From NCBI GenBank assembly GCA_964434115.1, contig CAYSSX010000004.1:175688-239687 (forward strand): a stretch of 64,000 nt of DNA. The letters are read 5' to 3'. The position numbers and the translations under genes are program-made. This DNA comes from an uncultured bacterium. Its GTDB lineage: Bacteria; Omnitrophota; Omnitrophia; Omnitrophales; Aquincolibacteriaceae. Under the pieces are notes generated by a model, which made no database searches, was not told where the DNA came from, and saw nothing but the letters and a program-made list of their open reading frames with translations. Below, in pieces: positions 41,890-62,902 of the stretch (positions within the stretch are counted from its first letter, which is position 1; each line of letters starts with the position of its first letter).

Positions 41890-41956
41890 AACAGAGCCCT
41901 CACAGGCTTCACTAGGTTTTAGGGGGGAATAGGATGAGAGCTTCGTAATTTTTGTA

Positions 41957-43054
41957 TTATGTTACAGGCATATGCACTTTCGGAAGAGAAAAAATAAATT
42001 TCGATCCCTTCCCCGCTTTGCTTTCAACACGAATACTGCCGCCATGAGCGGTCATAATGCCTTTACAAATGGCAAGGCCAAGCCCCGTTCCCTTTTCGCC
42101 TCCGGCCGGAGTATGCCCAAATTGCTCGAATTTATTGAAAAGCTTTTCAAGGCCTTCCTCGGGAATGCCCGCGCCCGTATCGGAAACACTGCACTCAATC
42201 GCGCCGCCCCGGTCCTCAATGCCGACACGGATTGTCCCCTGCGGGGTGAACTTCAGCGCGTTGCTCAGAAGATTGATAAAGACCTGCGAAATTTTTTCGC
42301 GGTCCGCTTCCACAAGAATGCCGGGATCCGGATAAACCTGCTGAAGTTCCAGACCGCGTGAAGCGATACTCTGCTTAAAACTCGCGCACACCTCCTGCGC
42401 CAGCGCCGCCATATTGAAGCTGGTTTTTTTAAGCTTCATTTTTCCGATTTCGATCTTGGTGAGGTCAAGCAGGTCATTGATCAAAAGGTTGAGGCGCTCC
42501 ATGTTTTTAAGCACCATGTCCAGAAAGAAGCGCTGATCTTCGGAAACCGTTCCAAGGATCCCCTCCAGGATCTGACGCAGCCCTTCGATCGAGACTGTAA
42601 GCGGCGAGCGCAGCTCATGCACCACCATGCCCATAAATTCCTCGCGGAGTTCCTGGATTTTTCTGCGTTCAAGGGCATAGCGCAGGACCCTTTCAAAAAG
42701 CTCCGGCGACATCTGGTCCTTCATCATGTAATCCTGCGCTCCTCCGGCCACCGCATCCGCGGCAATGTTTTCATCGGTAATGCCGGAACAAACAACGATG
42801 GGAACGCCTGCCGCCGACGGCTGAAGCCGGCGCAGGGTGTCCAGGCCCCGGCTGTCGGGAAGCTGAAGGTCCAGCAAAATCAGATCGAAGTGTTTCTGCG
42901 TGAGGAGTTCCAGCGATTTTTCCAGCGACGGGGCCCGCACAACGCGGTAATGGTTCACTGATTTACCAAGCCTTGACAGGAGTTTACCCATAATCAACGC
43001 ATCATCATCGTCATCTTCCACAAGCAGAACTTCAAAATCATGCTGATCCATCAT
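41957..43054 (-). CDS. Hybrid sensor histidine kinase (N-terminal receiver + HisKA + HATPase_c)
   Basis: ATG 43054 overlaps the stop of the upstream RR; ...VLLVEDDDDDALIMGKLLS...MVVHELRSPLT..., G-boxes. Confidence 0.85.
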   Translation of the reverse strand: MMDQHDFEVLLVEDDDDDALIMGKLLSRLGKSVNHYRVVRAPSLEKSLELLTQKHFDLILLDLQLPDSRGLDTLRRLQPSAAGVPIVVCSGITDENIAADAVAGGAQDYMMKDQMSPELFERVLRYALERRKIQELREEFMGMVVHELRSPLTVSIEGLRQILEGILGTVSEDQRFFLDMVLKNMERLNLLINDLLDLTKIEIGKMKLKKTSFNMAALAQEVCASFKQSIASRGLELQQVYPDPGILVEADREKISQVFINLLSNALKFTPQGTIRVGIEDRGGAIECSVSDTGAGIPEEGLEKLFNKFEQFGHTPAGGEKGTGLGLAICKGIMTAHGGSIRVESKAGKGSKFIFSLPKVHMPVT

Positions 43055-43509
43055 GGTCTCTCTTTGGGAAGTGAAACAATTCCAAACCAATAGGCATAAA
43101 TAATTTTGACGATTTCGACAAGCTCTTCAAACGTGACGGGTTTACGGATAAAGGAATTGCTGCCCAGCCCGTAAGTGTTGCCGATATCGTCTTCGGACTC
43201 GGAAGTCGTAAAAACCAGAACCGGGATTTTTTGAAACCTGGCATCGCGCTTGATTTCACGCAGCGCCTCACGGCCGTCTTTCCGGGGCATGTTTAGATCC
43301 AAGAGCATCAGGTCCGGCGCGGGAAACCTTTCAGCGCCGGAAAAAACACCGCGGTTTTCCAAATAATCCAGAAGCGCCTCGCCATCCACCGCGCGGAAAA
43401 GCCTCACGTCAAGGCGGGCCTTTTTGAAGGCCTTCTCGACCAGCATAAAATCATCGTCATCATCTTCCGCCATCAAAACAACAGGCAAAGCATGAGGTTC
43501 ATTCGGCAT
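43051..43509 (-). CDS. Single-domain response regulator
   Basis: ...VVLMAEDDDDDFMLVEKAFK...LLDLNMPRKDG...; RBS AAGGAG. Confidence 0.85.
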   Translation of the reverse strand: MPNEPHALPVVLMAEDDDDDFMLVEKAFKKARLDVRLFRAVDGEALLDYLENRGVFSGAERFPAPDLMLLDLNMPRKDGREALREIKRDARFQKIPVLVFTTSESEDDIGNTYGLGSNSFIRKPVTFEELVEIVKIIYAYWFGIVSLPKERP

Positions 43510-43518
43510 CGGTACTCC

Positions 43519-46500
43519 TTAGGGTGCCAGAGGAAGCGTAAAAATAAAAGCAGCGCCTTCTCCCGGTTTGCTTCGAGCGGTAATTTCACCGCCGTGGCGA
43601 TGGACGATTTTCTGGCATATGGAAAGGCCAATGCCTGTCCCTTCGTATTCCGATCGCGTGTGAAGTCTCTGAAAAGGAACAAAAATCCGGTCCAGGTATT
43701 TTTCATCAAACCCGATTCCGTTGTCCTTGATTCTAATTTCCTGGAAACCATTGTTCAAGGACACTCCTTCAATCTCCACGCACGGCACTTCTCCCGGCCG
43801 GCTGAATTTAAGCGCGTTTCCAAGCAGGTTCAGGAACAGCTGACTGACCTGCCCGGGATCGGCCATCACGGGAAGAAGTGTTTTCACGCTGATCCGGGCC
43901 TCGGTTTCAAGGATGCGGATTTCAAGGTCTGACAAGACTTCCGCCACCAGGGCGTTAAGGTCAACCTTCTCAAAGGGCTTGATCTTACGCATGACCCTGG
44001 AATAGGTCAGCAGGTCTTCGATGAGCTGGCGCATGCGCATCGCCCCTCCGACAATCCGGTTCAGATAGTCGTGCGCTTCATCATCCAGCCGGGATTTCTC
44101 TTTCTCTTCCAGCAGCTTGGAAAAAGAAATGATTTTTCTCAGCGGCTCCTGAAGGTCATGCGACGCCACACAGGCAAACTCTTCCAGTTCTTTATTGGAG
44201 CGCGCCAGTTCAAGGGATTTTTGCTGGAGCTGCTGCACGGCATTTCTTCTCTCGGTAATGTCTTTGACCTGCGCCACAAAAACAAGCGGCGCTCCCTGCT
44301 CATCGCGCACAAGAGATACGGCAAGGAGGCCCCAGACATAATGGCCCTTTTTATGGATATACCGTTTTTCCATGTGGTAAAAATCGATTTTCCCGGCAAG
44401 GAGCTGATTGACATTTTCCAGATCCGCATTCAAGTCGTCCGGATGAGTGATTTTTTGAAAAGTCGTTTTTAAAAGCTCTTCCTCCGAGTAGCCCAGAATC
44501 CCGCAAAGCGAACGGTTCACTTCCAGCCAGCGGCCGTCAATCCCCACAAGAGCCATGCCGATCGCGGAATGCGTAAAGGCCTCGCGGAAGCGTTCCTCAC
44601 TCTGCCGGAGTGCGATCTCGGTCTTTTTTCTTTCGGTAATGTCCTGGGAAATCCCGAGAAGGTAAAGCGGCTGGTTGTTGTCATCATAAACCGGGACTTT
44701 GATGGTATGAAGGTAACGCTCGCCCTGGTTATGGCTTTCGATTTTTTCGGAAGGAATATCCAGCGGCTTTCCGGAATCAAAAACTTCCTGGTCTTTGGCC
44801 CTGAAAAAATCCGCCTGTTCTTTGGGAAAAAAATCATAGTCCGTTTTTCCGATCACATCTTCCGCCTTCCAGCCCAGAATTTTTTCCGCGGTCGTATTCC
44901 AAAGTTCAAACATTCCAAAAAGTTCAGGTTTCGCGCTTTTGACAAACACCGAAACCGGCAGATTGTCGATCATGCTTTTCAGAAAAGTCCGGTTTTGACG
45001 AAGCGCTTGCTCCGTCTTCCGGAAATCAGAAATATCGGTGATCGTTCCCAAATACCCCTTGAGTTTGCCGCCCTTGTCTAAAACCGGAATAGCGGTTCCG
45101 AGCGCCCAGCGGACCTCTCCCTCCGAAGTTAGAACGCGCCCATCCATCACCAGGGGCCCGCCGCTTTTCAGCGCTTCTGCCCAGGCCCGAAGAACCTTTC
45201 CGCGGTCTTCCGGATGAACCGCCTGGATCCATCCATTGCCCATCATTTCCTGGTAAGAACGGCCCGCAATTTGAAGGTAGCGCTCATTGGCGAAAAAGCA
45301 GCGCCCCATGTCGTCGGTTTCAAAAATTCCAACAGGGGCATTCGTCACCAGGGTCCGGAAACGGTTTTCGCTCTCAAGAAGGGCTTCGGTCCGTTCCTGA
45401 ACGGTTTTGCGGATCACTCTTTCGCGGCTGGTCATAAGAGAAACATACTGCGAAATCATAAGGACAAAGAAAAGCACACTCCAGCAGGCCACCCAAGGCA
45501 TCCAGGAATTGATTGACCGCAAATAAGCGGCAGACGGCACACAGACAAACTCCAGGACCCGGTCGCCGATCCTCACCGTCTCTGAATAAAAAAACGGGCT
45601 ACGCGCAGCAGGCTGGCCCTGAGAAATCGGAGTCTGCCCCGCCAGCAGGGCTTCCGCATTGTAGTAATAAAGAAACTGTTTCTCCCGCGGATCCGTCTTA
45701 TCATAAATCAGCATGTTGATGGCCTTCCGCTCAGGCCGCACAAAAGTTTCTTCAAGGATGGCGCCGAGGTAGAAGGTACCCATCACAAACCCGCTAAGAC
45801 CGGCCTCTTTCTGATCCTCAGTGTCAAGCGGGACGCCCCCTTTATAAATGGGGTTTAAAATAACCAGTTTGAAATTATGCTCAGCATCATCAAAGCGCAA
45901 AAGGGGCGCCACGGTTCCCAGGCTTCCGCTTCGCGCAATTCGCCGCATGGCTTCATGACGGGTGGGATCGCTCGATACGTCAAACCCGAGGCGGTGTTTA
46001 TTGTCTTCAAAAGGAACCGTAAAAAAAATAGGGAAATAGCGGTCCTTGGCTGCGATTTCTTCGGGTTTGCCCTCCCGGTCTTTCTGATAGAAACGATAGC
46101 CTTCCAGTCCGCCGGCCCTTGCCTGCTGTTCGAAACTCTCCCTTTCCGCGCCGGAGACAAGCGGAAGCCAATCCATAGCTTTGACGCTTTTGTTCGCGGC
46201 AATACTTTCCCCGGCAAAGATGCGGAACTCATCCCTGTCGACCTGGCTGGAGCCTTTGTAAAAGGCTTTTAGGGCATTCATGACCTGAAGGTCTGCATCC
46301 ACATAGCGGCGGAAAAGAGTAATCCGGTCCTGGGCATCAGAACTGAACTGCATATAAAAACTCTTCTGCTGCTCCGCCAGAAGAATGTAATAAGTTTGCG
46401 CGGCCAGCGTCACGCCAAAAACAAAAACAAAAAACTGCGGCATCATACGGCTTCCTAAACACCAGGATTCGTACACGAGAAAAATACCCACGAGTACAAA

Positions 46501-47076
46501 ACCCAATGCCGTGTGGAAAGCCACGAGAGTAAAGAAGGCCCAGATAGAAGAACCATGCCCGCCGCTGAGGTAGCCGATCATGGAAGCACTGCCCAAGGCA
46601 AAAAGAGCGGTCCCAATGCCGCCGGTCAGAAAATGCCTGCGGGAGGCCTTGCTCCGGTCTGAAATTAAAAACGCCAGGCAAATAAGACAGAAGCAAAGCG
46701 CCGTTGTCGGCGCCATCCGCACCGGCTGAGGACTGCAGAGCGCGGCCCAAGCAGGAAGCAGCGCATCGTTGATCCCGGTTTTGGCATGAAAAAGATATTC
46801 CGCGAGCGTGAGAGCGCCCACAAAGCCCGGCACGCAGGAAAAGACCGTGTAAAAAATTCTTTTTTGCAAGGCGGCGGTAAGGACTGCGGCTCCCGTAAAA
46901 ACAAAGCAAAGCGCGGTATTGGGATGCATGTGGGCAAAAGCCGGGTTGATCTGAGTCAGCACCTCCAAATGGAAAATCCATCCGAACAGAGCCGTCAATC
47001 CAAGAAGAGTGCAAAAAGAACCGGCCGTAAGGCGCGCGCGGTTCAGACCTTTCACATCACGCATTGATTGCAGCAT
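43519..47076 (-). CDS. Large membrane sensor histidine kinase (multi-TM N-terminus, periplasmic sensor, 3-4 PAS domains, HisKA, HATPase_c)
   Basis: ~1185 aa; repeated PAS segments, ...VASHDLQEPLRKI... H-box; probable start ATG ~47076 (alternative 47064). Confidence 0.85.
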   Translation of the reverse strand: MLQSMRDVKGLNRARLTAGSFCTLLGLTALFGWIFHLEVLTQINPAFAHMHPNTALCFVFTGAAVLTAALQKRIFYTVFSCVPGFVGALTLAEYLFHAKTGINDALLPAWAALCSPQPVRMAPTTALCFCLICLAFLISDRSKASRRHFLTGGIGTALFALGSASMIGYLSGGHGSSIWAFFTLVAFHTALGFVLVGIFLVYESWCLGSRMMPQFFVFVFGVTLAAQTYYILLAEQQKSFYMQFSSDAQDRITLFRRYVDADLQVMNALKAFYKGSSQVDRDEFRIFAGESIAANKSVKAMDWLPLVSGAERESFEQQARAGGLEGYRFYQKDREGKPEEIAAKDRYFPIFFTVPFEDNKHRLGFDVSSDPTRHEAMRRIARSGSLGTVAPLLRFDDAEHNFKLVILNPIYKGGVPLDTEDQKEAGLSGFVMGTFYLGAILEETFVRPERKAINMLIYDKTDPREKQFLYYYNAEALLAGQTPISQGQPAARSPFFYSETVRIGDRVLEFVCVPSAAYLRSINSWMPWVACWSVLFFVLMISQYVSLMTSRERVIRKTVQERTEALLESENRFRTLVTNAPVGIFETDDMGRCFFANERYLQIAGRSYQEMMGNGWIQAVHPEDRGKVLRAWAEALKSGGPLVMDGRVLTSEGEVRWALGTAIPVLDKGGKLKGYLGTITDISDFRKTEQALRQNRTFLKSMIDNLPVSVFVKSAKPELFGMFELWNTTAEKILGWKAEDVIGKTDYDFFPKEQADFFRAKDQEVFDSGKPLDIPSEKIESHNQGERYLHTIKVPVYDDNNQPLYLLGISQDITERKKTEIALRQSEERFREAFTHSAIGMALVGIDGRWLEVNRSLCGILGYSEEELLKTTFQKITHPDDLNADLENVNQLLAGKIDFYHMEKRYIHKKGHYVWGLLAVSLVRDEQGAPLVFVAQVKDITERRNAVQQLQQKSLELARSNKELEEFACVASHDLQEPLRKIISFSKLLEEKEKSRLDDEAHDYLNRIVGGAMRMRQLIEDLLTYSRVMRKIKPFEKVDLNALVAEVLSDLEIRILETEARISVKTLLPVMADPGQVSQLFLNLLGNALKFSRPGEVPCVEIEGVSLNNGFQEIRIKDNGIGFDEKYLDRIFVPFQRLHTRSEYEGTGIGLSICQKIVHRHGGEITARSKPGEGAAFIFTLPLAP

Positions 47077-47194
47077 CCTGATTTTCCACTCTCTTTTAAA
47101 ACACTCATGACGCTTTGGGATACAGCTCCGCCGCGCGAGAAAACTCATTTTTTTATCGGCTTTATAAGGTTTGAACTAACGCTGCATTTAGAAG

Positions 47195-49036: not shown

Positions 49037-50683
49037 TTATTTTTGCGGCTTACGGCCCTTGTCAGAAACCCAGAATTCCAGATACCGGCCCAGCATCAGC
49101 CGGGTCTGCGCATCCAAAGCCGGGAGAGCGCTGAAGAAAATAACAATCGGCGGGACGAGAAACCACTCAAAGGCATGAATGGCGCGGATAAAAAGAGACT
49201 GTTTGGTTTTGCTTTTGGGAAGAAGAAAAAGGCTCAGGATAATCGTTGCCAAAAGCGATACAAAGGCCAGGTTGAAAATCGTCGTGCTGATACGCGGCGC
49301 GCTGTAATACAAAACAGAGTTGGCGTATTCGCGGCTCGCAAAAAGCGCGGGCATCCACCCGATCACGGCCAGCAGAAAAGGCCACGTGGCCCAGGCCAGA
49401 TGCCCCTCAAAAAGCTTGAACCCGTAAAGAACTTTGGAGCGGAACGGAATGCCTTTGGAGCGCAGAAAACCGCGCATGACAATCGGAAAATTCTCAACCC
49501 CCCAGGCCCAGCGGCGTTTCTGTTTATACACATGCACCGCTGTTTTAAAAAGACTGCCCGCGTCAATCACATCCATTGAGACCGTGATGTACATGGGAAC
49601 GGCCCGGTAGTCGCCGTCATAGTGAAGAAGGGATTTCCAGAAAATCGCGGAGTCATCCGAGATCATGTCCACCGGCCAGTAATCCACTTCGACGAGCGCC
49701 TTGAAACTCATGCTGTGGCTTGAAAAAGTCACCAGCTTGTCGGGGTCTGTCGCTTCCGTAAGCTGGAAAAAAGAGGCCCCGGTTTCCAGCACCCGCGCGA
49801 ACCCCGGGACATCCCAGATGTTGTTGTGATACACCGGGACCGGCTGAAAGCTGGCGCGGAAACGGTTGGGACAAATCATAAAACTATACGTCAGGCACGC
49901 GAAGTAATTCATGCTGACCACGGTGTCCGCGTCGAAACAGGAAATGACAATATTTTCGAAGGCCACTTCTCTTTCCTTAAAATACTCCGCGGCCTGGCGC
50001 GCGGCATAAGTGATGTTCGCGCCTTTGACGCGCGCTTCCCCCGGAATGCCCGAGGGGTGATAGATCACGAGAAAATCCCGGAAGTCTTTCTTGTATTTTT
50101 TCTTCAGCTCTTCGGCGCCCTGCTTCACATCGTCCTTGGCCCTGTCCTCAAGCGCCAGCACCATCACGATACGCGAAGCGGGGTAACTTCCCCTCGCAAT
50201 GCTCTCAATACCCGGCTCCAGAACATCCCGGCTTTCCTTGATCGCGGGAATCACCACCAGATGCACGATTTCATCGGATTGGGGCGGAGGAAAAACGCTT
50301 TCTTTGATCCGCTCGATCTCCTGCCGGTAAATCCACGCTGAAATCTTGCGCTTGAGGTTCCAGCCTTTCACGCGCGGCGGATTTAATTCTCCTCCCGCGA
50401 GAAAAACATCCAAAGCCTTGACCCGGCCAAACCAATCTGTTTTTTCTTCAAGCGAAAGGCGGAAGTAGGAAAGACAAAGAAAAATCGTGATGTAAAACAT
50501 CCTCAGCAGCCAGTAGAAATTGAAAACAATCATCACAATCGCGGCCGCGACCGGTTTGGTAAAAGAAAGCGTGATCATTCCCAGAATCACAAACCAGCTG
50601 GCGGCCCCGGGAAGAATTTCAAAAAGCCTTTCCAGCCGGGCTTCGCGGGGCGAAAGGTTGTGCCGTGAAAAATGAAATTTCAT
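49037..50683 (-). CDS. Processive family-2 glycosyltransferase (cellulose-synthase-like membrane-embedded polysaccharide synthase)
   Basis: N- and C-terminal TM bundles, ...ISCFDADTV... (DxD), ...QKRRWAWG... (QxxRW). Confidence 0.8.
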   Translation of the reverse strand: MKFHFSRHNLSPREARLERLFEILPGAASWFVILGMITLSFTKPVAAAIVMIVFNFYWLLRMFYITIFLCLSYFRLSLEEKTDWFGRVKALDVFLAGGELNPPRVKGWNLKRKISAWIYRQEIERIKESVFPPPQSDEIVHLVVIPAIKESRDVLEPGIESIARGSYPASRIVMVLALEDRAKDDVKQGAEELKKKYKKDFRDFLVIYHPSGIPGEARVKGANITYAARQAAEYFKEREVAFENIVISCFDADTVVSMNYFACLTYSFMICPNRFRASFQPVPVYHNNIWDVPGFARVLETGASFFQLTEATDPDKLVTFSSHSMSFKALVEVDYWPVDMISDDSAIFWKSLLHYDGDYRAVPMYITVSMDVIDAGSLFKTAVHVYKQKRRWAWGVENFPIVMRGFLRSKGIPFRSKVLYGFKLFEGHLAWATWPFLLAVIGWMPALFASREYANSVLYYSAPRISTTIFNLAFVSLLATIILSLFLLPKSKTKQSLFIRAIHAFEWFLVPPIVIFFSALPALDAQTRLMLGRYLEFWVSDKGRKPQK

Positions 50684-52158
50684 ACTTCCCGGATCTCGCT
50701 TTCTTTGCGTTCTTCCAAAAGATTGGGCAGTGTTAAAAATTTGATTTTCCGTTTCGGCAGGATCTCAAGCGCTGAAAGCGCTCCGCCGGATTCGGCCAGG
50801 TAGTAAAGCTTACCGGTATCATCGGAATAATAGATCATGCTGTCTTTTTTAACGTCCACGATGGGGTTGACCTGGGATTGGCCAAAACCTTCCAGTTCCA
50901 GAAGCGAGACATGCTGCCCGTCCCGGAAAAGAATATGCGCGCCTTCAAAGACCCAAAAGGCCTGGCGGATATCCGAGCCGTCACGAAACACTGAAATCAA
51001 GCGGACCCCTTTTTCAAAAATTTCCTTTTCCGCCGGCATGCGCCTGAAATCCAGAACACTGATGCTGTCCGGCCCCCAGGCCAAAACCTTACGCGGGCCT
51101 ACCAAAAAAGTCCCGCCGTAAAACTCCATTCCGGAAACCCCTGTCTCCGTGTGCACATAAGGAAGGCGGTTGCTGACCAGCTTCCCGTCCCGGCCCAGGA
51201 AGAGAACAAGGTCACGGGAAAACACATGAAGGGAGTACTCGTCCGTCTCACCCAGCAGGGTTTTCACAAGGTCGGCATCGCGGGACAAAAGCTTCCGGCC
51301 TTCCCCGTCCATTTCCTGCATGAGGAGGGTGTTATCTTTTTTCAGGGCATACACCCCCTTTTCAAAAAGCCCGATGCCCCGCACGTCTTTGAGAAAACCC
51401 GGAGACACCGTATTTTTTCCGGCATCCACCCGGTTCACAGTCCCTTCCCGGACCGCGAAAAGAACATCCTCGGCGGCCCCGTTCCAGACCACGGTTTCCG
51501 GCGATTCTAAAAACAACGGCGTCAAGTCTTGGGGGACTTCGTCATCAGCCTTGAAAAGAAGGTAGCGGTGCTTATTCGAGGCTTCGTCGGTTTCAAAAAG
51601 AATCAGCGGGCTGTCTTCCCTGACAAAAAATCTTGAGAAGCGAACACCGGCCATCCCTGCTTTCGAAGACACCAGCGGACGGACTTCCTCGCTCCGGGTA
51701 TCAAACACCTGGACATCCGAAAGCTTTGAAGTGCGGGTGAGGAGAAGCCGGGTGCCGCGGGCAAACGGGACAAAGTCCCGGAAACTCTCTTCGGCCAAAA
51801 TTTCCGGCTTGAATTCCTCGGGAAGCAGAAGGATTTTGTCGATAACCGTAGCCTTGCCGGCTTCCACGGGAAGGTTTTGGTTCCACGGCTTATAACCTTT
51901 AAGGGAAAGGGTCAGAGGGTATTCGCCCGGCATCAGGTCAAGCATCAGGGAGGGGGTCGGCTGCTCCAGTAGTTTTCCGGACAAAGTGACCGAGGCCCCT
52001 GCCGGCACGGTCGCGGCATAGATCAAGCCTGTCTTCACAATCCCCTGTTCATGCCCTGGTTTAAACAAATACCCCAAGGCATAGAGTACAATTAAAGGAC
52101 AGAAGACAATAAAGATCAGGGAAAAAAAGTAGAAAACAATTTTTCGAAGCAGTCCCAT
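50680..52158 (-). CDS. Membrane-anchored PEGA-domain protein with a C-terminal beta-rich domain
   Basis: N-terminal TM, then PEGA-like ...ATVPAGASVTLSGKLLEQPTPSLMLDLMPGEYPLTLSLKGYKPW...; 4 nt overlap with the GT2 synthase start. Confidence 0.6.
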   Translation of the reverse strand: MGLLRKIVFYFFSLIFIVFCPLIVLYALGYLFKPGHEQGIVKTGLIYAATVPAGASVTLSGKLLEQPTPSLMLDLMPGEYPLTLSLKGYKPWNQNLPVEAGKATVIDKILLLPEEFKPEILAEESFRDFVPFARGTRLLLTRTSKLSDVQVFDTRSEEVRPLVSSKAGMAGVRFSRFFVREDSPLILFETDEASNKHRYLLFKADDEVPQDLTPLFLESPETVVWNGAAEDVLFAVREGTVNRVDAGKNTVSPGFLKDVRGIGLFEKGVYALKKDNTLLMQEMDGEGRKLLSRDADLVKTLLGETDEYSLHVFSRDLVLFLGRDGKLVSNRLPYVHTETGVSGMEFYGGTFLVGPRKVLAWGPDSISVLDFRRMPAEKEIFEKGVRLISVFRDGSDIRQAFWVFEGAHILFRDGQHVSLLELEGFGQSQVNPIVDVKKDSMIYYSDDTGKLYYLAESGGALSALEILPKRKIKFLTLPNLLEERKESEIREV

Positions 52159-54495: not shown

Positions 54496-55752
54496 CTAGG
54501 TATTTTTGACCCGCCGGGCGGCTCCGGCCGCGGCCGTGACACCGCTCGACCAGGCCCATTGAAAGTTAAACCCCCCGATACGGCCGTCCACATCCAGGAT
54601 CTCCCCGGCAAAGAAAAGGCCCGGCTGCAGGCGTGATTCCATGGTGGCGTCATCGACTTCTGTCAAATCCACGCCCCCGGCCGTCACTTCAGCCTTGGCA
54701 TAGCCGGCGGACCCGCTGACCGAAAGAGAAGCCCGGAGAATTCCCTTCACCAGCGCTTCGCGTTCCTCCCGGGACACCTGATTCATAATCCGGTTCTCCG
54801 GAAGCCCTGCCTTTTTAATCAGCATGACCGCCAGTTTTTCCGGAAGTTCCAGGGCCAGAAAATTTTTCACCATCATTTTCGGATTTTCTGAGAGGGCCCC
54901 GGCCAGCGCCTTGCGTAAATCATCTTCATGAAGCGCGGGCAGAAAATTCGCGGTCAGAACCGCGGACGCATCGTTAAGACGGATCCAATGCCTGCTGATA
55001 TTCAAAACCACAGGGCCGCTGTAGCCCGTATGTGTAAAAAGAAACGAGCCTTCATACTCGACGTTTTTTTCTTTTCCCGCGTAAAGCGTGAGGCGCACCG
55101 GTAAGGTCACGCCGGACAGGCTTTTCCAATCCGCATCAGCGGTCAAAAGCGGGGTCAGCGAAGGCGATGTCGGAATAAGCGAATGCCCAAAGGCCTGTGC
55201 CAGCGCGTAACCCGATCCATCAGAACCGCTGGTAGGAAAAGACAACCCTCCGGTGCAAAGCACCACGGTTTTCGCCTGACACACTGCCCCGGCCTGGGCT
55301 TTCACGTTAAAAACAGAACCTTCCCGCTGAACACTCTCCACTTTAAAACCGGTCACAAGATTGACACCTATACGGGCCGCTTCGCGCGTCAGTGCTTCAA
55401 GCACCGTACGGCCTGAATGCGTGGCCGGAAAATACTTTCCGCCCGGTTCCAGCACCAGCTCCACCCCCAATTTTTGGAAAAACTCCACGGCCTTAGGCGC
55501 GGGAAAAGCCCTCAGCACATTCCTCACCTGCCTGATCTGCATGCTTTGAAAATCCCGCTCGCTGACCTTTTCATTCGTCACATTACAGCGGGTGCCGCCG
55601 GACATGAGAATTTTGGCGCCGATCTTTTCCCTTCCATCCAGAAGGAGCACGCTCAACCCCTGGGTTCGGGCCGAAATCGCGGTCATAAGGCCGGCCGCGC
55701 CGGCGCCTACCACCGCCATATCCGCCACTTCAGCCAGATTGTCTTGCATCAT
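54496..55752 (-). CDS. NAD(P)/FAD-dependent oxidoreductase, HI0933/BaiN-like family
   Basis: ...VVGAGAAGLMTAISARTQGLSVLLLDGREKIGAKILMSGGTRCNVTN...; likely start ATG 55752 (RBS GAAAGG). The ORF-track N-terminus MSPRYPVPLRKA (to 55788) is encoded by the repeat element. Confidence 0.85.
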   Translation of the reverse strand: MMQDNLAEVADMAVVGAGAAGLMTAISARTQGLSVLLLDGREKIGAKILMSGGTRCNVTNEKVSERDFQSMQIRQVRNVLRAFPAPKAVEFFQKLGVELVLEPGGKYFPATHSGRTVLEALTREAARIGVNLVTGFKVESVQREGSVFNVKAQAGAVCQAKTVVLCTGGLSFPTSGSDGSGYALAQAFGHSLIPTSPSLTPLLTADADWKSLSGVTLPVRLTLYAGKEKNVEYEGSFLFTHTGYSGPVVLNISRHWIRLNDASAVLTANFLPALHEDDLRKALAGALSENPKMMVKNFLALELPEKLAVMLIKKAGLPENRIMNQVSREEREALVKGILRASLSVSGSAGYAKAEVTAGGVDLTEVDDATMESRLQPGLFFAGEILDVDGRIGGFNFQWAWSSGVTAAAGAARRVKNT

Positions 55753-55765
55753 TGCCTTTCTTAAA

Positions 55766-55827
55766 GGTACCGGGTACCTAGGGGACACGTAACTTTGTTA
55801 CATTTCCCCAAGCAGGTACCCGGTACC
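55766..55827. repeat. GGTACC-type palindromic repeat element, full copy (GGTACCGGGTACC - GGGGACACGTAAC..GTTACATTTCCCC - GGTACCCGGTACC)
   Basis: Perfect 13 bp terminal inverted repeats; the central degenerate palindrome 55781..55809 is related to 10274..10299. Confidence 0.8.
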
Positions 55828-56442
55828 ATTTTATTTTCATTTTTACACACTCTTTACTTCAGTCCCGGGCCGGACCGTGCCGAAACATTAGATGCAACAA
55901 AGGAGGACATTATCGTCGAATTCGATTGGATTCTCCATCTCATGACCTTTCTTAATTGCCCTGAGAAAAAACCGCATGACCCGCGCGCCGAAGAGCAAGA
56001 GCCTTTGGCAGCCTGAAGCGGGCCGGCCGGAGCAGTCCCGTCCGGCAGCCGGCAGCGGCAAATCCCCTCACGAATCCCCATACCCTTTTTTCGAACGAGC
56101 GTCTTTTAACAGCGGGGGAATTCCCTTGTCTCATAAAAGGAGTTTCTCTGTCAACCTCCGGAGGCATCTCTATGACGAGCCTTAAACGTTTTTTCATGAT
56201 GCGTTCCCTGCTCAAAGTCAAAGCCCCGTCGAATAAATACCGCCGGGACAAAAGCTGTTAAAACAGAAGTAACCGCTCTTTAATCACCCTGTCAGGTTAA
56301 ACCCGCAGCATTTATTTTAGGCTGTCCCGGGTGGTGAATTTTATACCCTTCCCCGCGTCTTAAAGCTGGAGCCTTCCCCAAGTTTCAATTATAATGCGCC
56401 TTCTTATAAATGATGATTCGTTTTTTACCTGGAGCGCTTCCG

Positions 56443-57186
56443 ATGAAAAATAAAAAAATCTCCTCTTTCCTTGTTTTCTCCTTCATGATTTTTGCCTTTG
56501 CCGCAGCTATTCCCTTCGCGCTCGCGCAGGCCCCGGAAACCGCAGGAACTTCACCCTCGCTTTCAACCGCCATCAAAGGCATGACGCTTTGGCAGGTCAT
56601 TCAGGCCGGCGGCATTGTCATGGCGGCGCTCGGAGTCCTCTCTCTTCTGATGACGGCCCTTGTTATTTTTATGTTCCTGCGGTTCAATCAGGAAAAACTT
56701 CTCCCAGTTGAAAGCACCCGCCGCCTTATCGCCCTTTTAAGACAAAAGCGTTTCGACGAAGCGGAAAAGGTCTGCGCCACGGATGATTCCCCGGTCTCCA
56801 ACATTGTCAAAGCCGGGTTGAGCACCAAGGGTGACCTCAGCCTGTCGCGTGAGTATGTTGAAATGGCGGCCCGTAAAGAAGTGACTTCGCTCTGGACCCT
56901 CATGAACTACCTTTCCGAAGTGGCCCAGATTTCTCCGATGATGGGACTTCTCGGAACCGTGCTCGGTATGATCCAGGCCTTCAACACCATTGCCTTTGAT
57001 TCCGGCGTGGTTAAACCGATCATGCTTGCGGGCGGTGTTGCCAAGGCCATGATCACAACGGCCGGCGGCCTCACCATCGCCATCGCGGCCATGATTTTCT
57101 ATTCCTTGTTAAGACCGCGGGTTCAGAACATCACGAACCTGCTTGAAACCATTACCACCCAGATCTCGGAGAGTTTTTCAAAATGA
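56443..57186 (+). CDS. exbB: MotA/TolQ/ExbB proton-channel family protein with an N-terminal signal/extension
   Basis: ...MTLWQVIQAGGIVMAALGVLSLLM...SPMMGLLGTVLGMIQAF...; ATG 56443 has RBS GGAG. Confidence 0.85.
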   Translation: MKNKKISSFLVFSFMIFAFAAAIPFALAQAPETAGTSPSLSTAIKGMTLWQVIQAGGIVMAALGVLSLLMTALVIFMFLRFNQEKLLPVESTRRLIALLRQKRFDEAEKVCATDDSPVSNIVKAGLSTKGDLSLSREYVEMAARKEVTSLWTLMNYLSEVAQISPMMGLLGTVLGMIQAFNTIAFDSGVVKPIMLAGGVAKAMITTAGGLTIAIAAMIFYSLLRPRVQNITNLLETITTQISESFSK

Positions 57187-57611
57187 TCCGCCTTGATCCG
57201 CCGGAGACACGCAAGGCTTTCCCCACCGTCCAGATCGCGCCTTTCATCGACATTGTTTTCATGACGCTCATCTTCTTCATGACGCTCTCGGTTTATTACC
57301 AGCTTGAAAACGAAGTTTCGATCAGCGTTCCGAAAGCCGAGGAATCCAAGGAAGTCACCCGCAGCCCGGGCGAAATTATAATCAACGTGGACAGCAAGGG
57401 CGCGATGATTGTCAACCAGCGGGTCCTTGATCAGGCGGGTCTGGCCGAAATGCTCAAACGTGTTTCCTCCCTCTACCCGAACCAGCCGGTCATTATCCGG
57501 GCGGACAGAAAAACCCATCATGAAAATGTGATGCGGGTCCTGGACGCCTGCGCCTCCGCGCATATCTGGAACATCGCTTTCGCCACTGTCAAAGAAGAAC
57601 CCAAGCATTAA
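57183..57611 (+). CDS. exbD: ExbD/TolR biopolymer transport protein
   Basis: ...APFIDIVFMTLIFFM... single TM plus periplasmic domain; overlaps the exbB stop. Confidence 0.85.
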   Translation: MIRLDPPETRKAFPTVQIAPFIDIVFMTLIFFMTLSVYYQLENEVSISVPKAEESKEVTRSPGEIIINVDSKGAMIVNQRVLDQAGLAEMLKRVSSLYPNQPVIIRADRKTHHENVMRVLDACASAHIWNIAFATVKEEPKH

Positions 57612-57631
57612 GCTCGATCTGAGGGCGTTCT

Positions 57632-60007
57632 ATGAGCCAAGAAAAATTCCGCTTTTTTTCAGCCATGCTTCTTTGCGCCTGTCTCCTGCCGCCGGCGGCC
57701 CGGGCCGAAGACCCGGCCCCTGTTCCTCCGGCCTCTCAGCCCGCGCCTCAACCGGAAGCCGGCTCTGACCGTTTTGATTTTGCCGACGGACTTTATGCTC
57801 GAAGCATGTACGACATGGCCGCGGCGGAATACGAGAAACTCATCGCCGAAATGCCCGCGCACAGCCGCGCCCCGGACGCATTGTTCCGCCTCGCGGAATG
57901 CTTCTTTTTCCTGGAACAAAATGATCAGGCCGCGGCCCTTTATGAAAAATTTATCGCCTCTTACGGTGACCGCCCGCAGGCTGAAACCGCGAAACTGAGA
58001 AGCGCGGAACTCTTTGAACGCGCGGGCAAAAATGAAGAGGCCTTGGCCGCCCTTGAACCTTTGACGCAAAGCGCCGCGGGCAGCATTAAAAACTCCGCGC
58101 TTTTCCGCAAAGGCAAAATTCTTTTCGGCCTGGGAAAATTCCCGGAAGCCGCCGCGGCTTTTGAACCTCTTGCCGCGGCCCCTTCCGCAGAGGACAACCC
58201 CTTCAACAGCATCGCGCACTACTACCTTGGAGAGATCGCTTCCAAGGGAAAAGATTTCGCGAAAGCCTCTGAACACTTTGAGGCCGCGCGGCAGACGGAT
58301 AAAAAAGACATGCAGCAGCTCGCGGGGTCCGGTCTCGGTCAAGCCCTTCTGCTGGCCGGCAATCTCGAAAAAGCCCGCGATGCTTTTTTTCAGGCCTATC
58401 AAATCAAGGCCGATCCGGCCGCGACCCAGGAAACCTTTTATTATTACGCAAAGACCTTGTATGACCTGAAGCAGTACGAAGAAGCCCTGAAAGCCATTCA
58501 AGCGGAGAGCGCTGCCACGCCGGCTTCTCCGCCCATCCGTTTCGTAGAGGCTGCCGCGCTCGAAGCCTTGAACCGTTCCCCTGAAGCACTCCAGGTTTTT
58601 GACGCGGTCCTGGCCATTCCGGATTTAAAGCCGGAAGAAAAAGAAACCGCGGAGCTTGGAAAAATCGAAACCTTTCTGCACATGAACCAGCCCGCCGAGG
58701 CCTTAAAAACCGCGCAGGCCGCCCCGCAGGAACGCGCCTTTTACAAAGACCGCTGGGCCTATCTCATGGCGGAAACCCTGCGCAGAAATAATCAGCCCAA
58801 AGAAGCCCTGACCTGGCTGGATAAAATGATGGCTGAATTTCCAGAATCCCCTTACACTTCGCAGGCCGCGCTGAACCGCGGTTACATTCTTTATGAAGCC
58901 GGTGACCCTCAAAACGCGCGCTCGGCTTTTGACAACTACCTTCTCGCCCATCCGGGTGACGCGGAAACGCTTCCCACTTTAAAGAACCGGATCACGCTGG
59001 ACATCAAACTCGAAGACTGGCAGGCCGCGATTCAGACCTCCACCACGTTTCTTGAATTGTTCGGCACCTCTCCCGAGGCCCAGGATGTTCAAGCCCAGCT
59101 CGCGTCCCTATACCTCCAGGTTGAAGATTATGAGTCCGCGGTTAAAACCTTTGAGGCGTTTTTAATGCAGTACCCGGAATCCCCGAAAAAAGGCGAGATC
59201 CGTTTTTTTCTCGCTTACGCGAATCAATTGGCCGGGCATCTTGAAAAGGCCGTGAGTATTTACCGCGAAGTGACCAAGGAAAGCGTGACGCCGGACCTTT
59301 ACAGCGCGGCCCTGAAAAACACGGGCTACTGCCTGGTCCGCCTTGAGAAAATCAAAGAAGCCGCGGCCGCTTACCGCCGCTGGATTTCTGAAATTCCCGA
59401 CGCGGACGCAAGCCCGGAAGTTTTTTTCTGGCTTGCGGAACAGGAACTTCGCGACGGCGACGGCGACAACCTTTTAAAAGTCATGGAGGCCTTTCAAAAA
59501 AGACCCGGCTCTGAAACCTCCAAAGGCGCGGTCGAGTATTACCTCGGCGAGGCCTACCGTTTTAAGAAAGACGCGGATCAGGCCGTGGCTCATTACGATG
59601 CATCGCTCGCGGAACCCAATGACTACCGGGCCAAAGCAGTCTTCGGCAAAGCCCTCGCGGACGCCGTGCGCGGTCATTTCGATGAAGCCGCCGCGGGATT
59701 TGAAAGCGCCATCCATGAAGGCAGCGGCGACAACAACCTGACCCTTGAGGCCCGTCTTGAACTTGGAAAATTACACGCGGCCCAAAACCATTACCTGGAC
59801 GCGGCCAAGGCTTTTTTCGCGGCAGGCATTTTGTACGAAGATCTTGAGCGCGTTCCTGAGGCCCTTTTCAAAGCGGGTGAAATGTTTGAAAAGGCGGGAA
59901 AACCGCAGGACGCGGTGAAGGCTTACGACGAACTCATCAAACGTTTTCCGAATCATCCTTTGGCCAAAGACGCGGGCGCAAAATCCGCCGCCGCTCAAAC
60001 AGCATGA
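57632..60007 (+). CDS. Secreted tetratricopeptide-repeat protein (791 aa)
   Basis: Signal peptide, many TPR-like repeats. Confidence 0.8.
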   Translation: MSQEKFRFFSAMLLCACLLPPAARAEDPAPVPPASQPAPQPEAGSDRFDFADGLYARSMYDMAAAEYEKLIAEMPAHSRAPDALFRLAECFFFLEQNDQAAALYEKFIASYGDRPQAETAKLRSAELFERAGKNEEALAALEPLTQSAAGSIKNSALFRKGKILFGLGKFPEAAAAFEPLAAAPSAEDNPFNSIAHYYLGEIASKGKDFAKASEHFEAARQTDKKDMQQLAGSGLGQALLLAGNLEKARDAFFQAYQIKADPAATQETFYYYAKTLYDLKQYEEALKAIQAESAATPASPPIRFVEAAALEALNRSPEALQVFDAVLAIPDLKPEEKETAELGKIETFLHMNQPAEALKTAQAAPQERAFYKDRWAYLMAETLRRNNQPKEALTWLDKMMAEFPESPYTSQAALNRGYILYEAGDPQNARSAFDNYLLAHPGDAETLPTLKNRITLDIKLEDWQAAIQTSTTFLELFGTSPEAQDVQAQLASLYLQVEDYESAVKTFEAFLMQYPESPKKGEIRFFLAYANQLAGHLEKAVSIYREVTKESVTPDLYSAALKNTGYCLVRLEKIKEAAAAYRRWISEIPDADASPEVFFWLAEQELRDGDGDNLLKVMEAFQKRPGSETSKGAVEYYLGEAYRFKKDADQAVAHYDASLAEPNDYRAKAVFGKALADAVRGHFDEAAAGFESAIHEGSGDNNLTLEARLELGKLHAAQNHYLDAAKAFFAAGILYEDLERVPEALFKAGEMFEKAGKPQDAVKAYDELIKRFPNHPLAKDAGAKSAAAQTA

Positions 60008-61689
60008 AAAAAAGAAATCTCTTTGCGGTCTCCGCATCCATTTCTGTTTTCGTTCACGCGCTTCTGCTGGCCGCGGTTTACTTTCTCCAGCTCCCCGGCC
60101 TCACGGCAAGCATCACGCCGCCTTTGCAGCCCGAGAAAATTTTTCAGGTCAAAACCGTGACCCTGCCGCCGGTTCCTCCGGCCGAAAACGCGTCCGCCGA
60201 GCGCCGCACAGAAACCTACGTCCAGAAAGTCCAGTTTGAAAAACCTGCCGCGGGCATGGCGCAAAAAATTAAAGGGGCTTTGACTGAAGGCCCGCAGTTA
60301 AAAGCGCCGGAGAACCTGGCTCCCGCGCCTCTGCAGAAATTGACGCTTGAAGATTTCGCGCCGCGCAAACTCCCGTCTTTTAATGAGACGGGGGAATCGT
60401 TGAAAGAATCCGTCCAGCTTCCCAAGCGCCTCACGCCGGCCCCGTCCGCAATTCATCAGCCCGTGCTTCCGGTCTCGCCTGAAAAAATCCTTCCGGAGGA
60501 TGACGTCTTGGAAGCGCCGCAGGATTTTCTCGAACACATGCCGGCCTTTACACCGGAAAGCATTTCACGTTCGCCGGGCTCCAAAAAACTGACCTCGGAC
60601 GCGTTGGGAATTTTTTCCGGCAGCAGCGTCTATCAATCCAACCCGAACTTTCAGCCGCTCGACCAATACCTGGGCGTCAAGATTCAGACCTACCGCGACC
60701 CGGGCGACGGCCAGGGTTATTACCGCATTTCTATTTATCCTTTTGCCGAGGCCAAGGTCCTGACCGTTTTACCCAAGGAAGTTCTTTTCCTGGTCGACGC
60801 CTCGCTCAGCATTCAGGCCCGGCGCTTGTATGCCTTTAAAGAGGGCATCAAGCACGCCCTGCAGAATCTGAACCCCGGCGACCTTTTCAATATTTACGTT
60901 TTCAAAAATGACATTGCGCCTTTTGCTCCAAAATCCCTTTCCGCCGGCCCCGCGGAAATTCAAAGCGCCATGGAATTTCTGGACGAATTAAAACCCAGCC
61001 AGACCACCGATATTTATCAGGCCTTTTTTGATACGCTCCAGCAGCCAGCGCCGGCCATGCCCTCTTACATGATGCTTCTCAGTGACGGCAAACCCACGGC
61101 CGGTGAAGGCTCCACAACAAAACTCATCGCGGAAATCACCAAGGCGAACAACCACATCCGCCCCATCTTTGCTTTCAGCGGCGGCGCGCGCGTCAACCGC
61201 TTCCTGCTTGATTTTCTGGCCTATCCCAACCGGGGCTGGTCGGAATACGCGTCCTCCAACGCCCAGATCAAACAGCGGCTGATGGAATTCACGGATAAAA
61301 TCCAGAACCCCGTGCTCACGCATGTCCGCTATCAATTGACTCCGCTCAGTGAAGATGAGGTTTATCCCAAACACCTGACCGACATTTATCAGGACACGTT
61401 TTTCACGATTTATGGGCGGTTCAAGGATGAGACACGGTTTTCCGTGCGCGTCACCGGAGAGGCTGGGGACGTGAACAAGGAATTTATTTTTTCAGGCGAT
61501 TTGACTCAGGCCCCGCAGGGCGACCGTGACATCGCGCGTTTCTGGGCCTTTAACAAGGTCTATCACTTGATCAGCAAGATGGTGCTCGAAGGTGCCACGG
61601 ATGGGGAGAAAAAAGAAATTCAGGACCTCATCACTCATTTCCAGCTGGAAATTCCCTACAACATTGAAGAGATCGAAAAGAAAAGCTAA
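60004..61689 (+). CDS. TonB-anchor-like N-terminus fused to a von Willebrand factor A (VWA) domain protein
   Basis: N-terminal TM SASISVFVHALLLAAVYF (S-x3-H as in TonB anchors); Pro-rich linker; VWA ...VLFLVDASLSIQA...MMLLSDGKPTAG...; overlaps the TPR gene stop. Confidence 0.65.
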   Translation: MKKRNLFAVSASISVFVHALLLAAVYFLQLPGLTASITPPLQPEKIFQVKTVTLPPVPPAENASAERRTETYVQKVQFEKPAAGMAQKIKGALTEGPQLKAPENLAPAPLQKLTLEDFAPRKLPSFNETGESLKESVQLPKRLTPAPSAIHQPVLPVSPEKILPEDDVLEAPQDFLEHMPAFTPESISRSPGSKKLTSDALGIFSGSSVYQSNPNFQPLDQYLGVKIQTYRDPGDGQGYYRISIYPFAEAKVLTVLPKEVLFLVDASLSIQARRLYAFKEGIKHALQNLNPGDLFNIYVFKNDIAPFAPKSLSAGPAEIQSAMEFLDELKPSQTTDIYQAFFDTLQQPAPAMPSYMMLLSDGKPTAGEGSTTKLIAEITKANNHIRPIFAFSGGARVNRFLLDFLAYPNRGWSEYASSNAQIKQRLMEFTDKIQNPVLTHVRYQLTPLSEDEVYPKHLTDIYQDTFFTIYGRFKDETRFSVRVTGEAGDVNKEFIFSGDLTQAPQGDRDIARFWAFNKVYHLISKMVLEGATDGEKKEIQDLITHFQLEIPYNIEEIEKKS

Positions 61690-61694
61690 AAGGC

Positions 61695-62279
61695 TTAATC
61701 GGTCGAAGGTTCCCGCACCGGAGGCTGAATCATCTTGTCGATTTTTTGCGCCTCCCGGATTTCATGAGACCCTGACTTCAAATCAAAATCATTCTGATGC
61801 GGATTGGGTCTCGACTTCAGCCACACACCGGAAGCTGTTCCCGTAATCACCCCAACACCGGCCGCGCCGTAAAGACCCGCTCCCCCCGCCGCCCCTGTCG
61901 AAGCCGTCGCCGCGGGAATCGCGGTTGAAGCCGCAAGACTCCCCGCAACACCTACGGTCGCAAGGGTTCCCGCGAGAATGTAAACTTTTTTACGGTCACT
62001 AACAGGCCCGTGATACGGAATCTGTCCGGATTTTACTTTCGGGTCCAGCATGCGGTAGTCAGGCCGCGCGATCTGCTCAATCTTTCCGGTCAGCGCGGGG
62101 CTGGTGCGCGTGCCGTCTTTTCCAATAATCGTGACATAGGGTTTTCCGGTTTTGGGATGCTCGCGCACCGCCACCTGGGTCCCGGTAGGACGAAAGACTT
62201 CAGAGCCTTCCTCGGCCCGAATCCCAGGCTGAAAAACCAGAGAACTTACGAGAAAAAAAACTGCCGCGCGATTTTTCAT
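61695..62279 (-). CDS. Secreted Gly/Ala-rich hypothetical protein
   Basis: Signal peptide MKNRAAVFFLVSSLVFQPGIRA. Confidence 0.45.
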   Translation of the reverse strand: MKNRAAVFFLVSSLVFQPGIRAEEGSEVFRPTGTQVAVREHPKTGKPYVTIIGKDGTRTSPALTGKIEQIARPDYRMLDPKVKSGQIPYHGPVSDRKKVYILAGTLATVGVAGSLAASTAIPAATASTGAAGGAGLYGAAGVGVITGTASGVWLKSRPNPHQNDFDLKSGSHEIREAQKIDKMIQPPVREPSTD

Positions 62280-62902
62280 GGCTGAGGCGCCTCGGGCGCG
62301 GGAAATTTCCCGGTCGTAATTCCATCCTGCACATACTGCAGAACCGCGATGATATTTCTTTCAAGGGCCGCGTTGAGGTTCACTTCCGGCCCGCCCTTTT
62401 TCGCGAAAACTTTCTGGGCGTCACTCACGCCGCTGGATTCAAAATAACTCAGCACGTTTAAATTTGTGTCATAAACCACGGCCTCTGTGGTCAACGCCAC
62501 GGCCTGGCCTTTCAGGGTCACCCGATTCCCCAGGTCCTTGATCCCCACCACCACCAAATACGGAATCCCGTATTGGCGAAGCACATCCGGCGTGGGCTCC
62601 ACTTCCACCAGTACGAATTCTTTAAACGCGGCCTGAAAACCTTCGATCAGCATGGGCGCGTACGCCTCGCCCACATAATACGTTTGAGGGTCCGCGAATT
62701 TCCCTCCCCGGTTTGTTGACTTGTAAGTAAGGAGCTGGGGCGGAAGGTAAAGGGCCACGCGCTGGTCAAGCTCAGGCACTTCCTGCGCGAATTGCGCGGA
62801 AAGAATTCCCGGCGCGTGAATGTTCCAGCCAAAAAGAGTGGCGCATCCCGCGAGCAGCGGCAGCAGCAAAATCAAAAACAGTTTTTTATCGTTAAGTCTC
62901 AT
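62276..62902 (-). CDS. Lipoprotein (lipobox LLAGC), function unknown
   Basis: MRLNDKKLFLILLLPLLAGC... Confidence 0.5.
   Translation of the reverse strand: MRLNDKKLFLILLLPLLAGCATLFGWNIHAPGILSAQFAQEVPELDQRVALYLPPQLLTYKSTNRGGKFADPQTYYVGEAYAPMLIEGFQAAFKEFVLVEVEPTPDVLRQYGIPYLVVVGIKDLGNRVTLKGQAVALTTEAVVYDTNLNVLSYFESSGVSDAQKVFAKKGGPEVNLNAALERNIIAVLQYVQDGITTGKFPAPEAPQP

Follow-up and report, generated by a model that had tools for sequence, protein, structure and literature searches.

Introduction

To our knowledge, the Ton and Tol systems are the only understood routes by which inner-membrane energy is delivered to the outer membrane in diderm bacteria. In integrins, VWA domains and their metal-ion-dependent adhesion site (MIDAS) form force-resistant, metal-mediated bonds. 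Here we describe a four-gene cassette in which these two themes appear to meet, consisting of ExbB-like, ExbD-like, tetratricopeptide-repeat (TPR) and VWA genes and encoded on the plus strand at positions 56443-61689 of a 64,000-nucleotide stretch of DNA from an uncultured Omnitrophota bacterium (assembly GCA_964434115.1, contig CAYSSX010000004.1, positions 175,688 to 239,687). This whole stretch is referred to as the window, and all positions are given in its numbering. We interpret the cassette as a motor-coupled VWA transducer system, a reading to which we assign a probability of about 0.7; the best explanation of the four-gene operon is a self-contained third type of Ton/Tol-like envelope machine driven by the proton motive force (PMF).

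The closest described systems are the ‘vWA force transducers’ predicted beside TolQR-like and TPR genes in bacteria of the Planctomycetes-Verrucomicrobia-Chlamydiae (PVC) group (Williams-Jones et al. 2025, Mol Biol Evol 42:msaf138, PMC12204202). Members of this class start with a transmembrane (TM) helix carrying the His of the SHLS motif, continue with a disordered linker that contains a motor box, and end in a vWA fold; the TM His was docked onto the motor with AlphaFold 3, and no phenotype is known for the class (PMC12204202).

The cassette in the window resembles the seed of this class in its Ser/His-bearing TM helix, its disordered linker with a motor-binding box, its C-terminal VWA fold, its synteny with TolQ-like, TolR-like and TPR genes, and its occurrence in the PVC group. 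It differs in several respects. The seed organism, Tichowtungia aerotolerans, carries a heterologous pair of TolR-like genes and a paralogous pair of transducers of ~475 amino acids (aa), whereas here there is one of each and the transducer has 561 aa. The seed transducers have no Pfam VWA match and neither MIDAS nor DxSxS (the corresponding segment reads FILDANKLM), whereas here the MIDAS is invariant and the module is ITIH/YfbK-like. The TPR gene lies upstream of the motor genes in the seed description, but between the ExbD and VWA genes here. Membership in the seed sequence family was considered and rejected, the hhalign match between the seed and the present family being marginal (probability 31%, E 5e-4, over 74 VWA-core columns); the two belong to the same architectural class but to different sequence families. 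Omnitrophota is absent from the phyla listed for the published family and from the main text, and the supplement includes it in the Tol-Pal catalogue only (PMC12204202); a literature search found no other paper on such cassettes. The architecture and the idea have already been published, and what is new here is the intact MIDAS, the ITIH/YfbK-like module, the single ExbD and single transducer, and the occurrence in Omnitrophota and Phycisphaerae.

Results

Organization of the cassette

The four genes are as follows.

56443..57186, plus strand: ExbB/TolQ-like proton-channel subunit, 247 aa (Pfam MotA_ExbB, 7e-27)
57183..57611, plus strand: ExbD/TolR-like subunit, 142 aa (Pfam ExbD, 3e-24)
57632..60007, plus strand: secreted all-TPR protein with CpoB/YbgF-like repeats, 791 aa (TPR families over residues 48-779)
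60004..61689, plus strand: VWA ‘force-transducer’ protein, 561 aa, with a predicted N-in TM anchor, a disordered linker and an ITIH/YfbK-like MIDAS VWA module

A first-pass annotation, made from the letters alone, had described four overlapping plus-strand genes. All four open reading frames (ORFs) lie where it placed them, but they overlap at only two of the three junctions: ExbB-ExbD and TPR-VWA each share a 4-nt ATGA, whereas a 20-nt gap separates ExbD from the TPR gene. The 4-nt overlap of the TPR stop and the VWA start recurs in 37 of 68 related loci. An alternative in-frame ATG for ExbB lies upstream at 56410; however, a GGAG is found ~10 nt upstream of 56443 and none before 56410, making 56443 the more plausible start. 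Promoter and terminator scanning of 55700-62400 was uninformative, as sites were no more numerous than in shuffled sequence.

A TonB-like anchor and a D-box-like strand precede the VWA module

The last protein was modelled with AlphaFold 2 (AF2) from a 29-sequence alignment, giving a mean predicted local distance difference test score (pLDDT) of 76. The model is confident (mostly pLDDT >90) for a globular module at residues 215-555, and residues ~30-210 are of low confidence and predicted to be disordered. The following features, all on the plus strand, are distinguished.

60010..60084, plus strand: TM helix, residues 3-27 (AF2 helix, pLDDT 78-95)
60091..60645, plus strand: disordered linker, residues 30-214 (pLDDT mostly <50), containing the D-box-like motif
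60139..60162, plus strand: D-box-like beta-strand I46-F47-Q-V49-K50-T-V52-T53, flanked by P43 and P55-P56
60778..61299, plus strand: VWA domain, residues 259-432 (VWA_3 over residues 259-412, 3.6e-16; pLDDT >90)
61309..61638, plus strand: ITIH-like beta-sandwich (residues 436-499) and helical hairpin (509-545) on the VWA domain, followed by a short tail (AF2 pLDDT >90)

In TonB and TolA, the SHLS motif (Ser-x3-His-x6-Leu-x3-Ser) lies in the single N-terminal TM helix (PMC12905483). The anchor here, MKKRNLFAVSASIS14VFVH18ALLLAAVYF, contains the S-x3-H half, with Ser14 (codon 60043-60045) and His18 (codon 60055-60057) corresponding to the S and H of that motif. Ser14 is kept in 75 of 80 homologues and His18 in 79 of 80, while nearby TM positions vary among hydrophobic residues. 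About 17 residues past the helix lies the segment P43-EKI-F47-Q-V49-K50-T-V52-T53-L-P55-P56. The published D-box or R-box is a proline-flanked beta-strand of the pattern Phi-z-Phi-z-Phi-Phi-z located 10-15 residues after the TM helix, as in E. coli TonB (QP-ISVTMVT-PAD; PMC10907165), and the strand in our transducer matches this pattern at six of seven positions. It is also conserved in character, position 47 being hydrophobic in 77/80 sequences, position 49 in 78/80, and position 50 being K, Q or R in 63/80. The rest of the ~185-aa linker is poorly conserved, and its proline content is 14.5% (186 residues, 30-215, counted). The S-x3-H of the anchor and the Pro-rich spacer of the first-pass annotation are both recovered, and a D-box-like strand follows the anchor.

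An ITIH-like VWA module with a complete MIDAS

The same annotation had placed a VWA domain where TonB carries its C-terminal domain, and this too holds. The gene matches VWA_3 and gives no match to TonB_C (PF03544), TonB_2 or TolA, a TonB from a related locus (L044) scoring 81 bits as a positive control. The MIDAS is complete, comprising D265-x-S267-x-S269 (60796-60810), T335 and D361; all five are kept without exception in an alignment of homologues (29/29; 23-72% identity), and every one of the 137 full-length family representatives examined carries DxSxS.

In a Foldseek search of the PDB, the AF2 module matched ITIH1 first (6fpy, E 7.7e-24, 350 columns) and other VWA proteins next, the list including bacterial pilus-tip adhesins with VWA domains, and BatB only at rank 47. 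By sequence, the best PDB matches are ITIH4 and ITIH1 (phmmer against ITIH4, 8e-18). The NCBIfam model of VIT-VWA sortase targets, TIGR03788, scores 125 bits over residues 226-552, which is below its cutoff, and E. coli YfbK aligns with the module with an hhalign probability of 94%. A VIT domain is found only in the most distant homologues (P0050, P0052 and P0053), suggesting that in this family the VIT of an ITIH/YfbK-type VWA module was replaced by a membrane anchor and linker.

An integrin-like VWA/MIDAS module with pilus-tip adhesins among its fold matches could also belong to a surface adhesion or gliding machine, comparable to Myxococcus Agl-Glt with CglB and possibly serving host attachment by small Omnitrophota cells. 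CglB is reported to be a VWA adhesin coupled to a TolQR-like motor (PMC9946355), and gliding was suggested as a role by the authors of the published class (PMC12204202). We nevertheless consider such a machine improbable here: around the cassette there are no conserved secretion genes and no conserved outer-membrane or periplasmic components of a Glt-like kind, and a VWA domain tethered to the inner membrane would be periplasmic, and would not contact a substratum without an outer-membrane conduit.

As a separate observation, an (I/T)-P-Y motif lies near the C-terminus of the VWA protein (61657-61668, region of residues 552-555) in an otherwise variable tail, with Y552 at least 90% conserved. 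It may be a short linear motif through which the TPR partner binds.

The motor pair, the TPR protein and the Tol-Pal alternative

The sequence hallmarks of a proton-driven motor are present: an ExbB and ExbD pair, the TM Asp of ExbD and two pore-lining Thr residues of ExbB. The Pfam models PF01618 and PF02472 match the ExbB-like and ExbD-like genes with 94 bits (cutoff 22.9) and 86 bits (cutoff 25.4), respectively. The ExbB-like protein has a signal-peptide-like N-terminal segment, which it shares with the long Serratia ExbB (7ajq), followed by three TM helices. Its key residues are Ser67 in TM1, Pro165, Thr172 and Thr206; T172 and T206 align with T145 and T178 of E. coli TolQ and P165 with TolQ P138, and all three are at least 95% conserved among 63 cassette ExbBs. 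In the ExbD-like protein, the TM residue Asp23 (codon 57249-57251) aligns with E. coli ExbD D25 and is at least 95% conserved among 49 cassette ExbDs. F133 in the C-terminal beta-strand, at least 80% conserved in the same set, aligns with E. coli ExbD L132, whose mutation abolishes D-box binding (PMC10907165).

Which of the two classical motors the pair resembles more is less clear-cut. The best NCBIfam matches of both genes are TolQ and TolR (for the first gene, TolQ 66 bits and ExbB 47 bits), but both the TolQR and the ExbBD equivalog scores fall 3-4 times below cutoff, and ExbB/ExbD and TolQ/TolR match about equally in the PDB. By these scores, the motor pair would be assignable to neither equivalog.

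The third gene had been described as a secreted TPR protein of 791 aa, and both its TPR families, which run along the full length, and its type-I signal peptide (residues ~1-25, ending ARA|ED; not a lipoprotein) agree with that description. The homologues carry AxA-type signal peptides and no conserved lipobox Cys, indicating that these are soluble periplasmic proteins, and a conserved (E)QLDFAxGL motif follows the signal peptide. Against TIGR02795 (tol_pal_ybgF), the protein scores 174 bits summed over six stretches.

The TolQ/TolR ranking of the motor genes and the TPR protein, which passes the tol_pal_ybgF (CpoB) score through six repeats, bring in a second possibility, namely a divergent Tol-Pal-type system composed of TolQ-TolR, a CpoB-like TPR protein and a TolA analogue with VWA as its domain III, acting specifically in outer-membrane constriction and tethering at division. 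This would be a more specific functional version of our best explanation with the same architecture, and we view it as possible but rather unlikely. FtsZ lies two genes upstream of the cassette in one related locus (L090), and the published seed organism is without recognisable TolA and TonB (PMC12204202). However, neither TolB nor Pal is found within or close to the cassette, either in the window or among those related loci whose genes were listed; the TPR protein exceeds CpoB threefold in size; the TolQ/TolR scores are subthreshold; and the PDB matches to ExbB/ExbD and TolQ/TolR are about even.

The cassette is conserved across two phyla

Scanning of GTDB species genomes located relatives of the VWA protein in 396 stretches, and the label counts given here refer to the best 80 of these 396. 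Among them, 41 are labelled Omnitrophota, 21 Phycisphaerae/Planctomycetota and one Verrucomicrobia, while six are unlabelled; the other 11 carry the label ‘uncultured Planctomycetia/Planctomycetales’ as metagenome-assembled genomes (MAGs) and group by identity with Omnitrophota sequences. An Omnitrophota origin of the cassette itself is indicated by homologues of up to 60% identity. An exhaustive HMMER search of 1.84 billion cluster representatives returned 845 clusters (50% identity) at E <=1e-30, mostly of 540-610 aa.

Synteny was counted in the 57 loci having at least 4.2 kb of upstream DNA. The order ExbB-ExbD-TPR (750-870 aa)-VWA on one strand is found in 56 of the 57, all 56 with exactly one ExbD, and these loci span Omnitrophota and Phycisphaerae with VWA proteins down to ~24-30% identical. 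Such a four-gene order is far beyond chance, and the co-occurrence analysis that had been proposed as a check on the cassette comes out in its favour.

Since Zorya defence uses 5:2 motors, an anti-phage or conflict system on a MotAB-like motor was also weighed. We rejected this defence-system reading, as PADLOC gave no match for ExbB, ExbD or the VWA protein, and we regard it as extremely unlikely. The neighbourhood consists of housekeeping genes of uniform GC content, and an order conserved in two phyla between housekeeping flanks (in loci with listed genes) is unlike patchy defence islands.

Relation to canonical Ton components

Searches of all window ORFs with phmmer and with a hidden Markov model built from six TonB/TolA sequences found no TonB or TolA and no second ExbB or ExbD, and Pfam searches of ~36 further window ORFs found no TonB-dependent transporter (TBDT), TonB_C, TolB or Pal. 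In one Omnitrophota MAG (L044:9929-13527), a TBDT (Plug and barrel), ExbB, ExbD and TonB_C gene cluster sits directly downstream of the VWA cassette; four more ORFs (13502-17112) come after it. Two Ton-like motors thus stand side by side, the VWA gene retaining its own ExbB/ExbD pair. Since a canonical Ton cluster adjoins the cassette, we view the latter as an additional, dedicated system and not as a degenerate Ton. The concern that a canonical TonB is simply encoded elsewhere and the VWA protein is unrelated does not apply, because this MAG has both, each with its own motor.

An SxxxH-less sub-branch covaries with the motor

In a motif search, 25 of the 137 family representatives lacked S/A/T-x3-H, in some cases because the sequences are N-terminally truncated. 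At least 11 of the SxxxH-less representatives form a sub-branch, with TM helices such as LFLSFVTALVLYAGLYAVAP (pattern ...LxYAxL...AP). These proteins retain the MIDAS and the ExbB-ExbD-TPR-VWA cassette (L087:161-5467, L090:2395-7764 and L091:1489-6737). In exactly these three loci, Ser67 in TM1 of ExbB is replaced by Ala or Gly, whereas it is Ser in 63/63 other cassettes. In E. coli structures, the S and H of TonB and TolA contact the TM1 Ser of ExbB and TolQ (PMC12905483), and a direct TM-TM contact predicts that SxxxH and the ExbB TM1 Ser would be lost together.

Members of the same sub-branch show a further feature outside the cassette: a GHMP-kinase gene of ~550 aa (GalKase_gal_bdg) right after the VWA gene and partly overlapping it (L089:2600-4267, L090:7754-9355 and L091:6734-8386), followed by DegT aminotransferase and glycosyltransferase genes. 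This neighbourhood may link the cassette to envelope sugar metabolism.

Proposed coupling of the VWA protein to the motor

From the sequence features described above, we infer that the motor and the VWA protein are physically coupled. A simpler account would be a chance or loose co-location: the VWA protein would then be of the common Bat-like or YfbK-like sort, held in the membrane by a plain signal anchor and mechanically independent of the neighbouring ExbBD. VWA-TPR pairs do occur in Bat operons, and weak BatC (52 bits) and BatB (rank 47) matches are seen, but MoxR and DUF58 are absent and BatC is far below its cutoff of 175. The existence of homologues lacking an adjacent motor and of a sub-branch lacking SxxxH likewise fits co-location. 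Set against this are the synteny in 56/57 loci across phyla and the translational coupling, the near-invariant polar Ser and His in a TM helix, the conserved D-box-like strand, the retention of SxxxH by two of the orphans, and the covariation of ExbB with the transducer. Loose co-location therefore appears very unlikely to us.

Several observations do weigh against a motor-coupled transducer. Orphan homologues without an adjacent ExbB/ExbD or large TPR gene are found in three loci: L003:10001-11719 (a metagenome contig), L078:7314-9026 (a Verrucomicrobia MAG) and L086:1205-3019 (a Kiritimatiellia genome). Of these, P0048 (L003) and P0049 (L086) retain SxxxH and the MIDAS, and the orphan VWA proteins are presumably driven by a motor from another part of the genome. 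Only half of the SHLS motif is present, as its Leu and second Ser positions are not conserved in 80 sequences: V25 occupies the Leu position in our protein, where the family has S, A, L or V, and Q29 occupies the last Ser position, where the family has K, P, W or R. The covariation is effectively one evolutionary event, because the three cassettes form one clade, and the E. coli TM1 equivalent of Ser67 is ambiguous, because the MAFFT and phmmer alignments differ by ~5 residues. Moreover, a sub-branch that works without SxxxH in the same cassette implies that S and H are not the sole determinant of coupling. Finally, the architectural class, including all its members, is known as an in silico prediction alone (PMC12204202).

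Genomic neighbourhood

A convergent minus-strand gene pair (61695-62902) starts 5 nt past the VWA stop; it has no Pfam or NCBIfam match and is not kept beside the cassette in other loci. One member (194 aa) carries a signal peptide and ends in a hydrophobic segment rich in Gly and Ala, and the other (208 aa) has an apparent lipobox (LLAGC). Beyond it, a TolC-like gene of the OEP family begins at ~63060 on the plus strand, and the next gene encodes at least 1014 aa; this region continues past the window end at 64000 (L093:4489-8905). The two genes are probably an efflux pump with no evident link to the cassette.

Upstream, on the minus strand at 49037-52158, a 548-aa multi-TM GT2-like glycosyltransferase gene shares a 4-nt overlap with that of a 492-aa PEGA-domain membrane protein, possibly an exopolysaccharide module. 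A large glycogen/alpha-glucan cluster occupies 31541-43090 (minus strand) and comprises GH57 with DUF3536, a GH57 branching enzyme, a DUF4912 protein, glycogen phosphorylase and GlgB; a hybrid histidine kinase gene comes after it, and further on lies that of a 1209-aa CHASE-PASx3 sensor kinase (43519-47148). An overlapping three-gene operon at 25614-30300 (minus strand) encodes polyphosphate kinase, a Ppx/GppA-HD phosphatase and a ROK-family kinase.

Discussion

We envision the cassette as a machine in which ExbB and ExbD would form an inner-membrane proton channel and motor, its 5:2 stoichiometry and rotation being expected by analogy with E. coli ExbBD and TolQR. The 561-aa protein would stand in for TonB or TolA. 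Its N-in TM helix would dock on the periphery of ExbB via Ser14 and His18, and the proline-flanked F47-QVKTVT strand would be captured by the periplasmic ExbD dimer in the manner of the TonB D-box. The disordered, moderately Pro-rich linker of ~185 residues could then cross the periplasm, so that the MIDAS of the ITIH/integrin-like VWA domain could hold on to an acidic residue on some partner, located at or below the outer membrane, and the motor would pull on this partner. The 791-aa periplasmic TPR protein, which appears to be co-translated with the transducer, most likely serves the transducer or its target as a scaffold or adaptor. As to the role of such a machine, Tol-like envelope maintenance or outer-membrane-linked remodelling is most likely, followed by import and then by adhesion.

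A broader evolutionary reading can be formulated, which we offer tentatively and at less than even odds. Ton-like motors may have acquired VWA outputs on at least two independent occasions; here, an ITIH/YfbK-type VIT-VWA protein would have lost its VIT and gained a TonB-like anchor, giving an integrin-like, metal-ion-dependent, force-bearing link to an outer-membrane or host-facing ligand. The result would be a third PMF-powered class beside Ton and Tol, distributed widely among Omnitrophota and Phycisphaerae, in which the interface between SxxxH and the ExbB TM1 Ser was rewired in one sub-branch. A third widespread output, if true, would mark the ExbBD-type motor as a periplasmic winch of general use. 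With 845 clusters, one ExbD, one transducer and an invariant MIDAS, this family also offers a cleaner experimental entry than the MIDAS-less, duplicated seed, and it is relevant to how the envelope works in Omnitrophota and Phycisphaerae, about which next to nothing is known.

Compared with the known systems, the cassette is like Ton in its ExbB/ExbD-family motor with the conserved Asp and Thr residues and in its transducer, which is predicted to be N-in and single-pass and combines Ser-x3-His, a Pro-containing disordered linker and a proline-flanked D-box-like strand 10-17 residues after the TM helix. Unlike Ton, the cassette has no TonB_C, there is no TBDT in the cassette or window, and the output would be metal coordination by the MIDAS instead of beta-strand augmentation of a Ton box. 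With Tol-Pal it shares the best scores of its motor (TolQ/TolR), the CpoB/YbgF-type TPR repeats and the S/H anchor common to TolA; it departs from Tol-Pal in having no TolA domain III, TolB or Pal in the cassette, the window or the related loci with listed genes, and in a 791-aa TPR protein with about six CpoB-like units.

The likeness to Bat/aerotolerance VWA-TPR modules pointed out in the first-pass annotation holds insofar as membrane-anchored VWA proteins are encoded beside TPR proteins in both, but it is weak. There is no MoxR ATPase, DUF58 or BatD in the neighbourhood, and Bat operons are without ExbB/ExbD. Identity with a Bat operon was rejected on the BatC score (52 bits against the cutoff of 175), the BatB fold rank of 47 and the absent partner genes. 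The VWA module itself is closest in kind to ITIH heavy chains and bacterial VIT-VWA proteins (ITIH1, YfbK and TIGR03788), with which it shares a MIDAS VWA, a beta-sandwich and helical elements; whereas ITIH and YfbK proteins carry an N-terminal VIT and are linked to no motor, the VIT is here replaced by a TonB-like TM anchor and linker.

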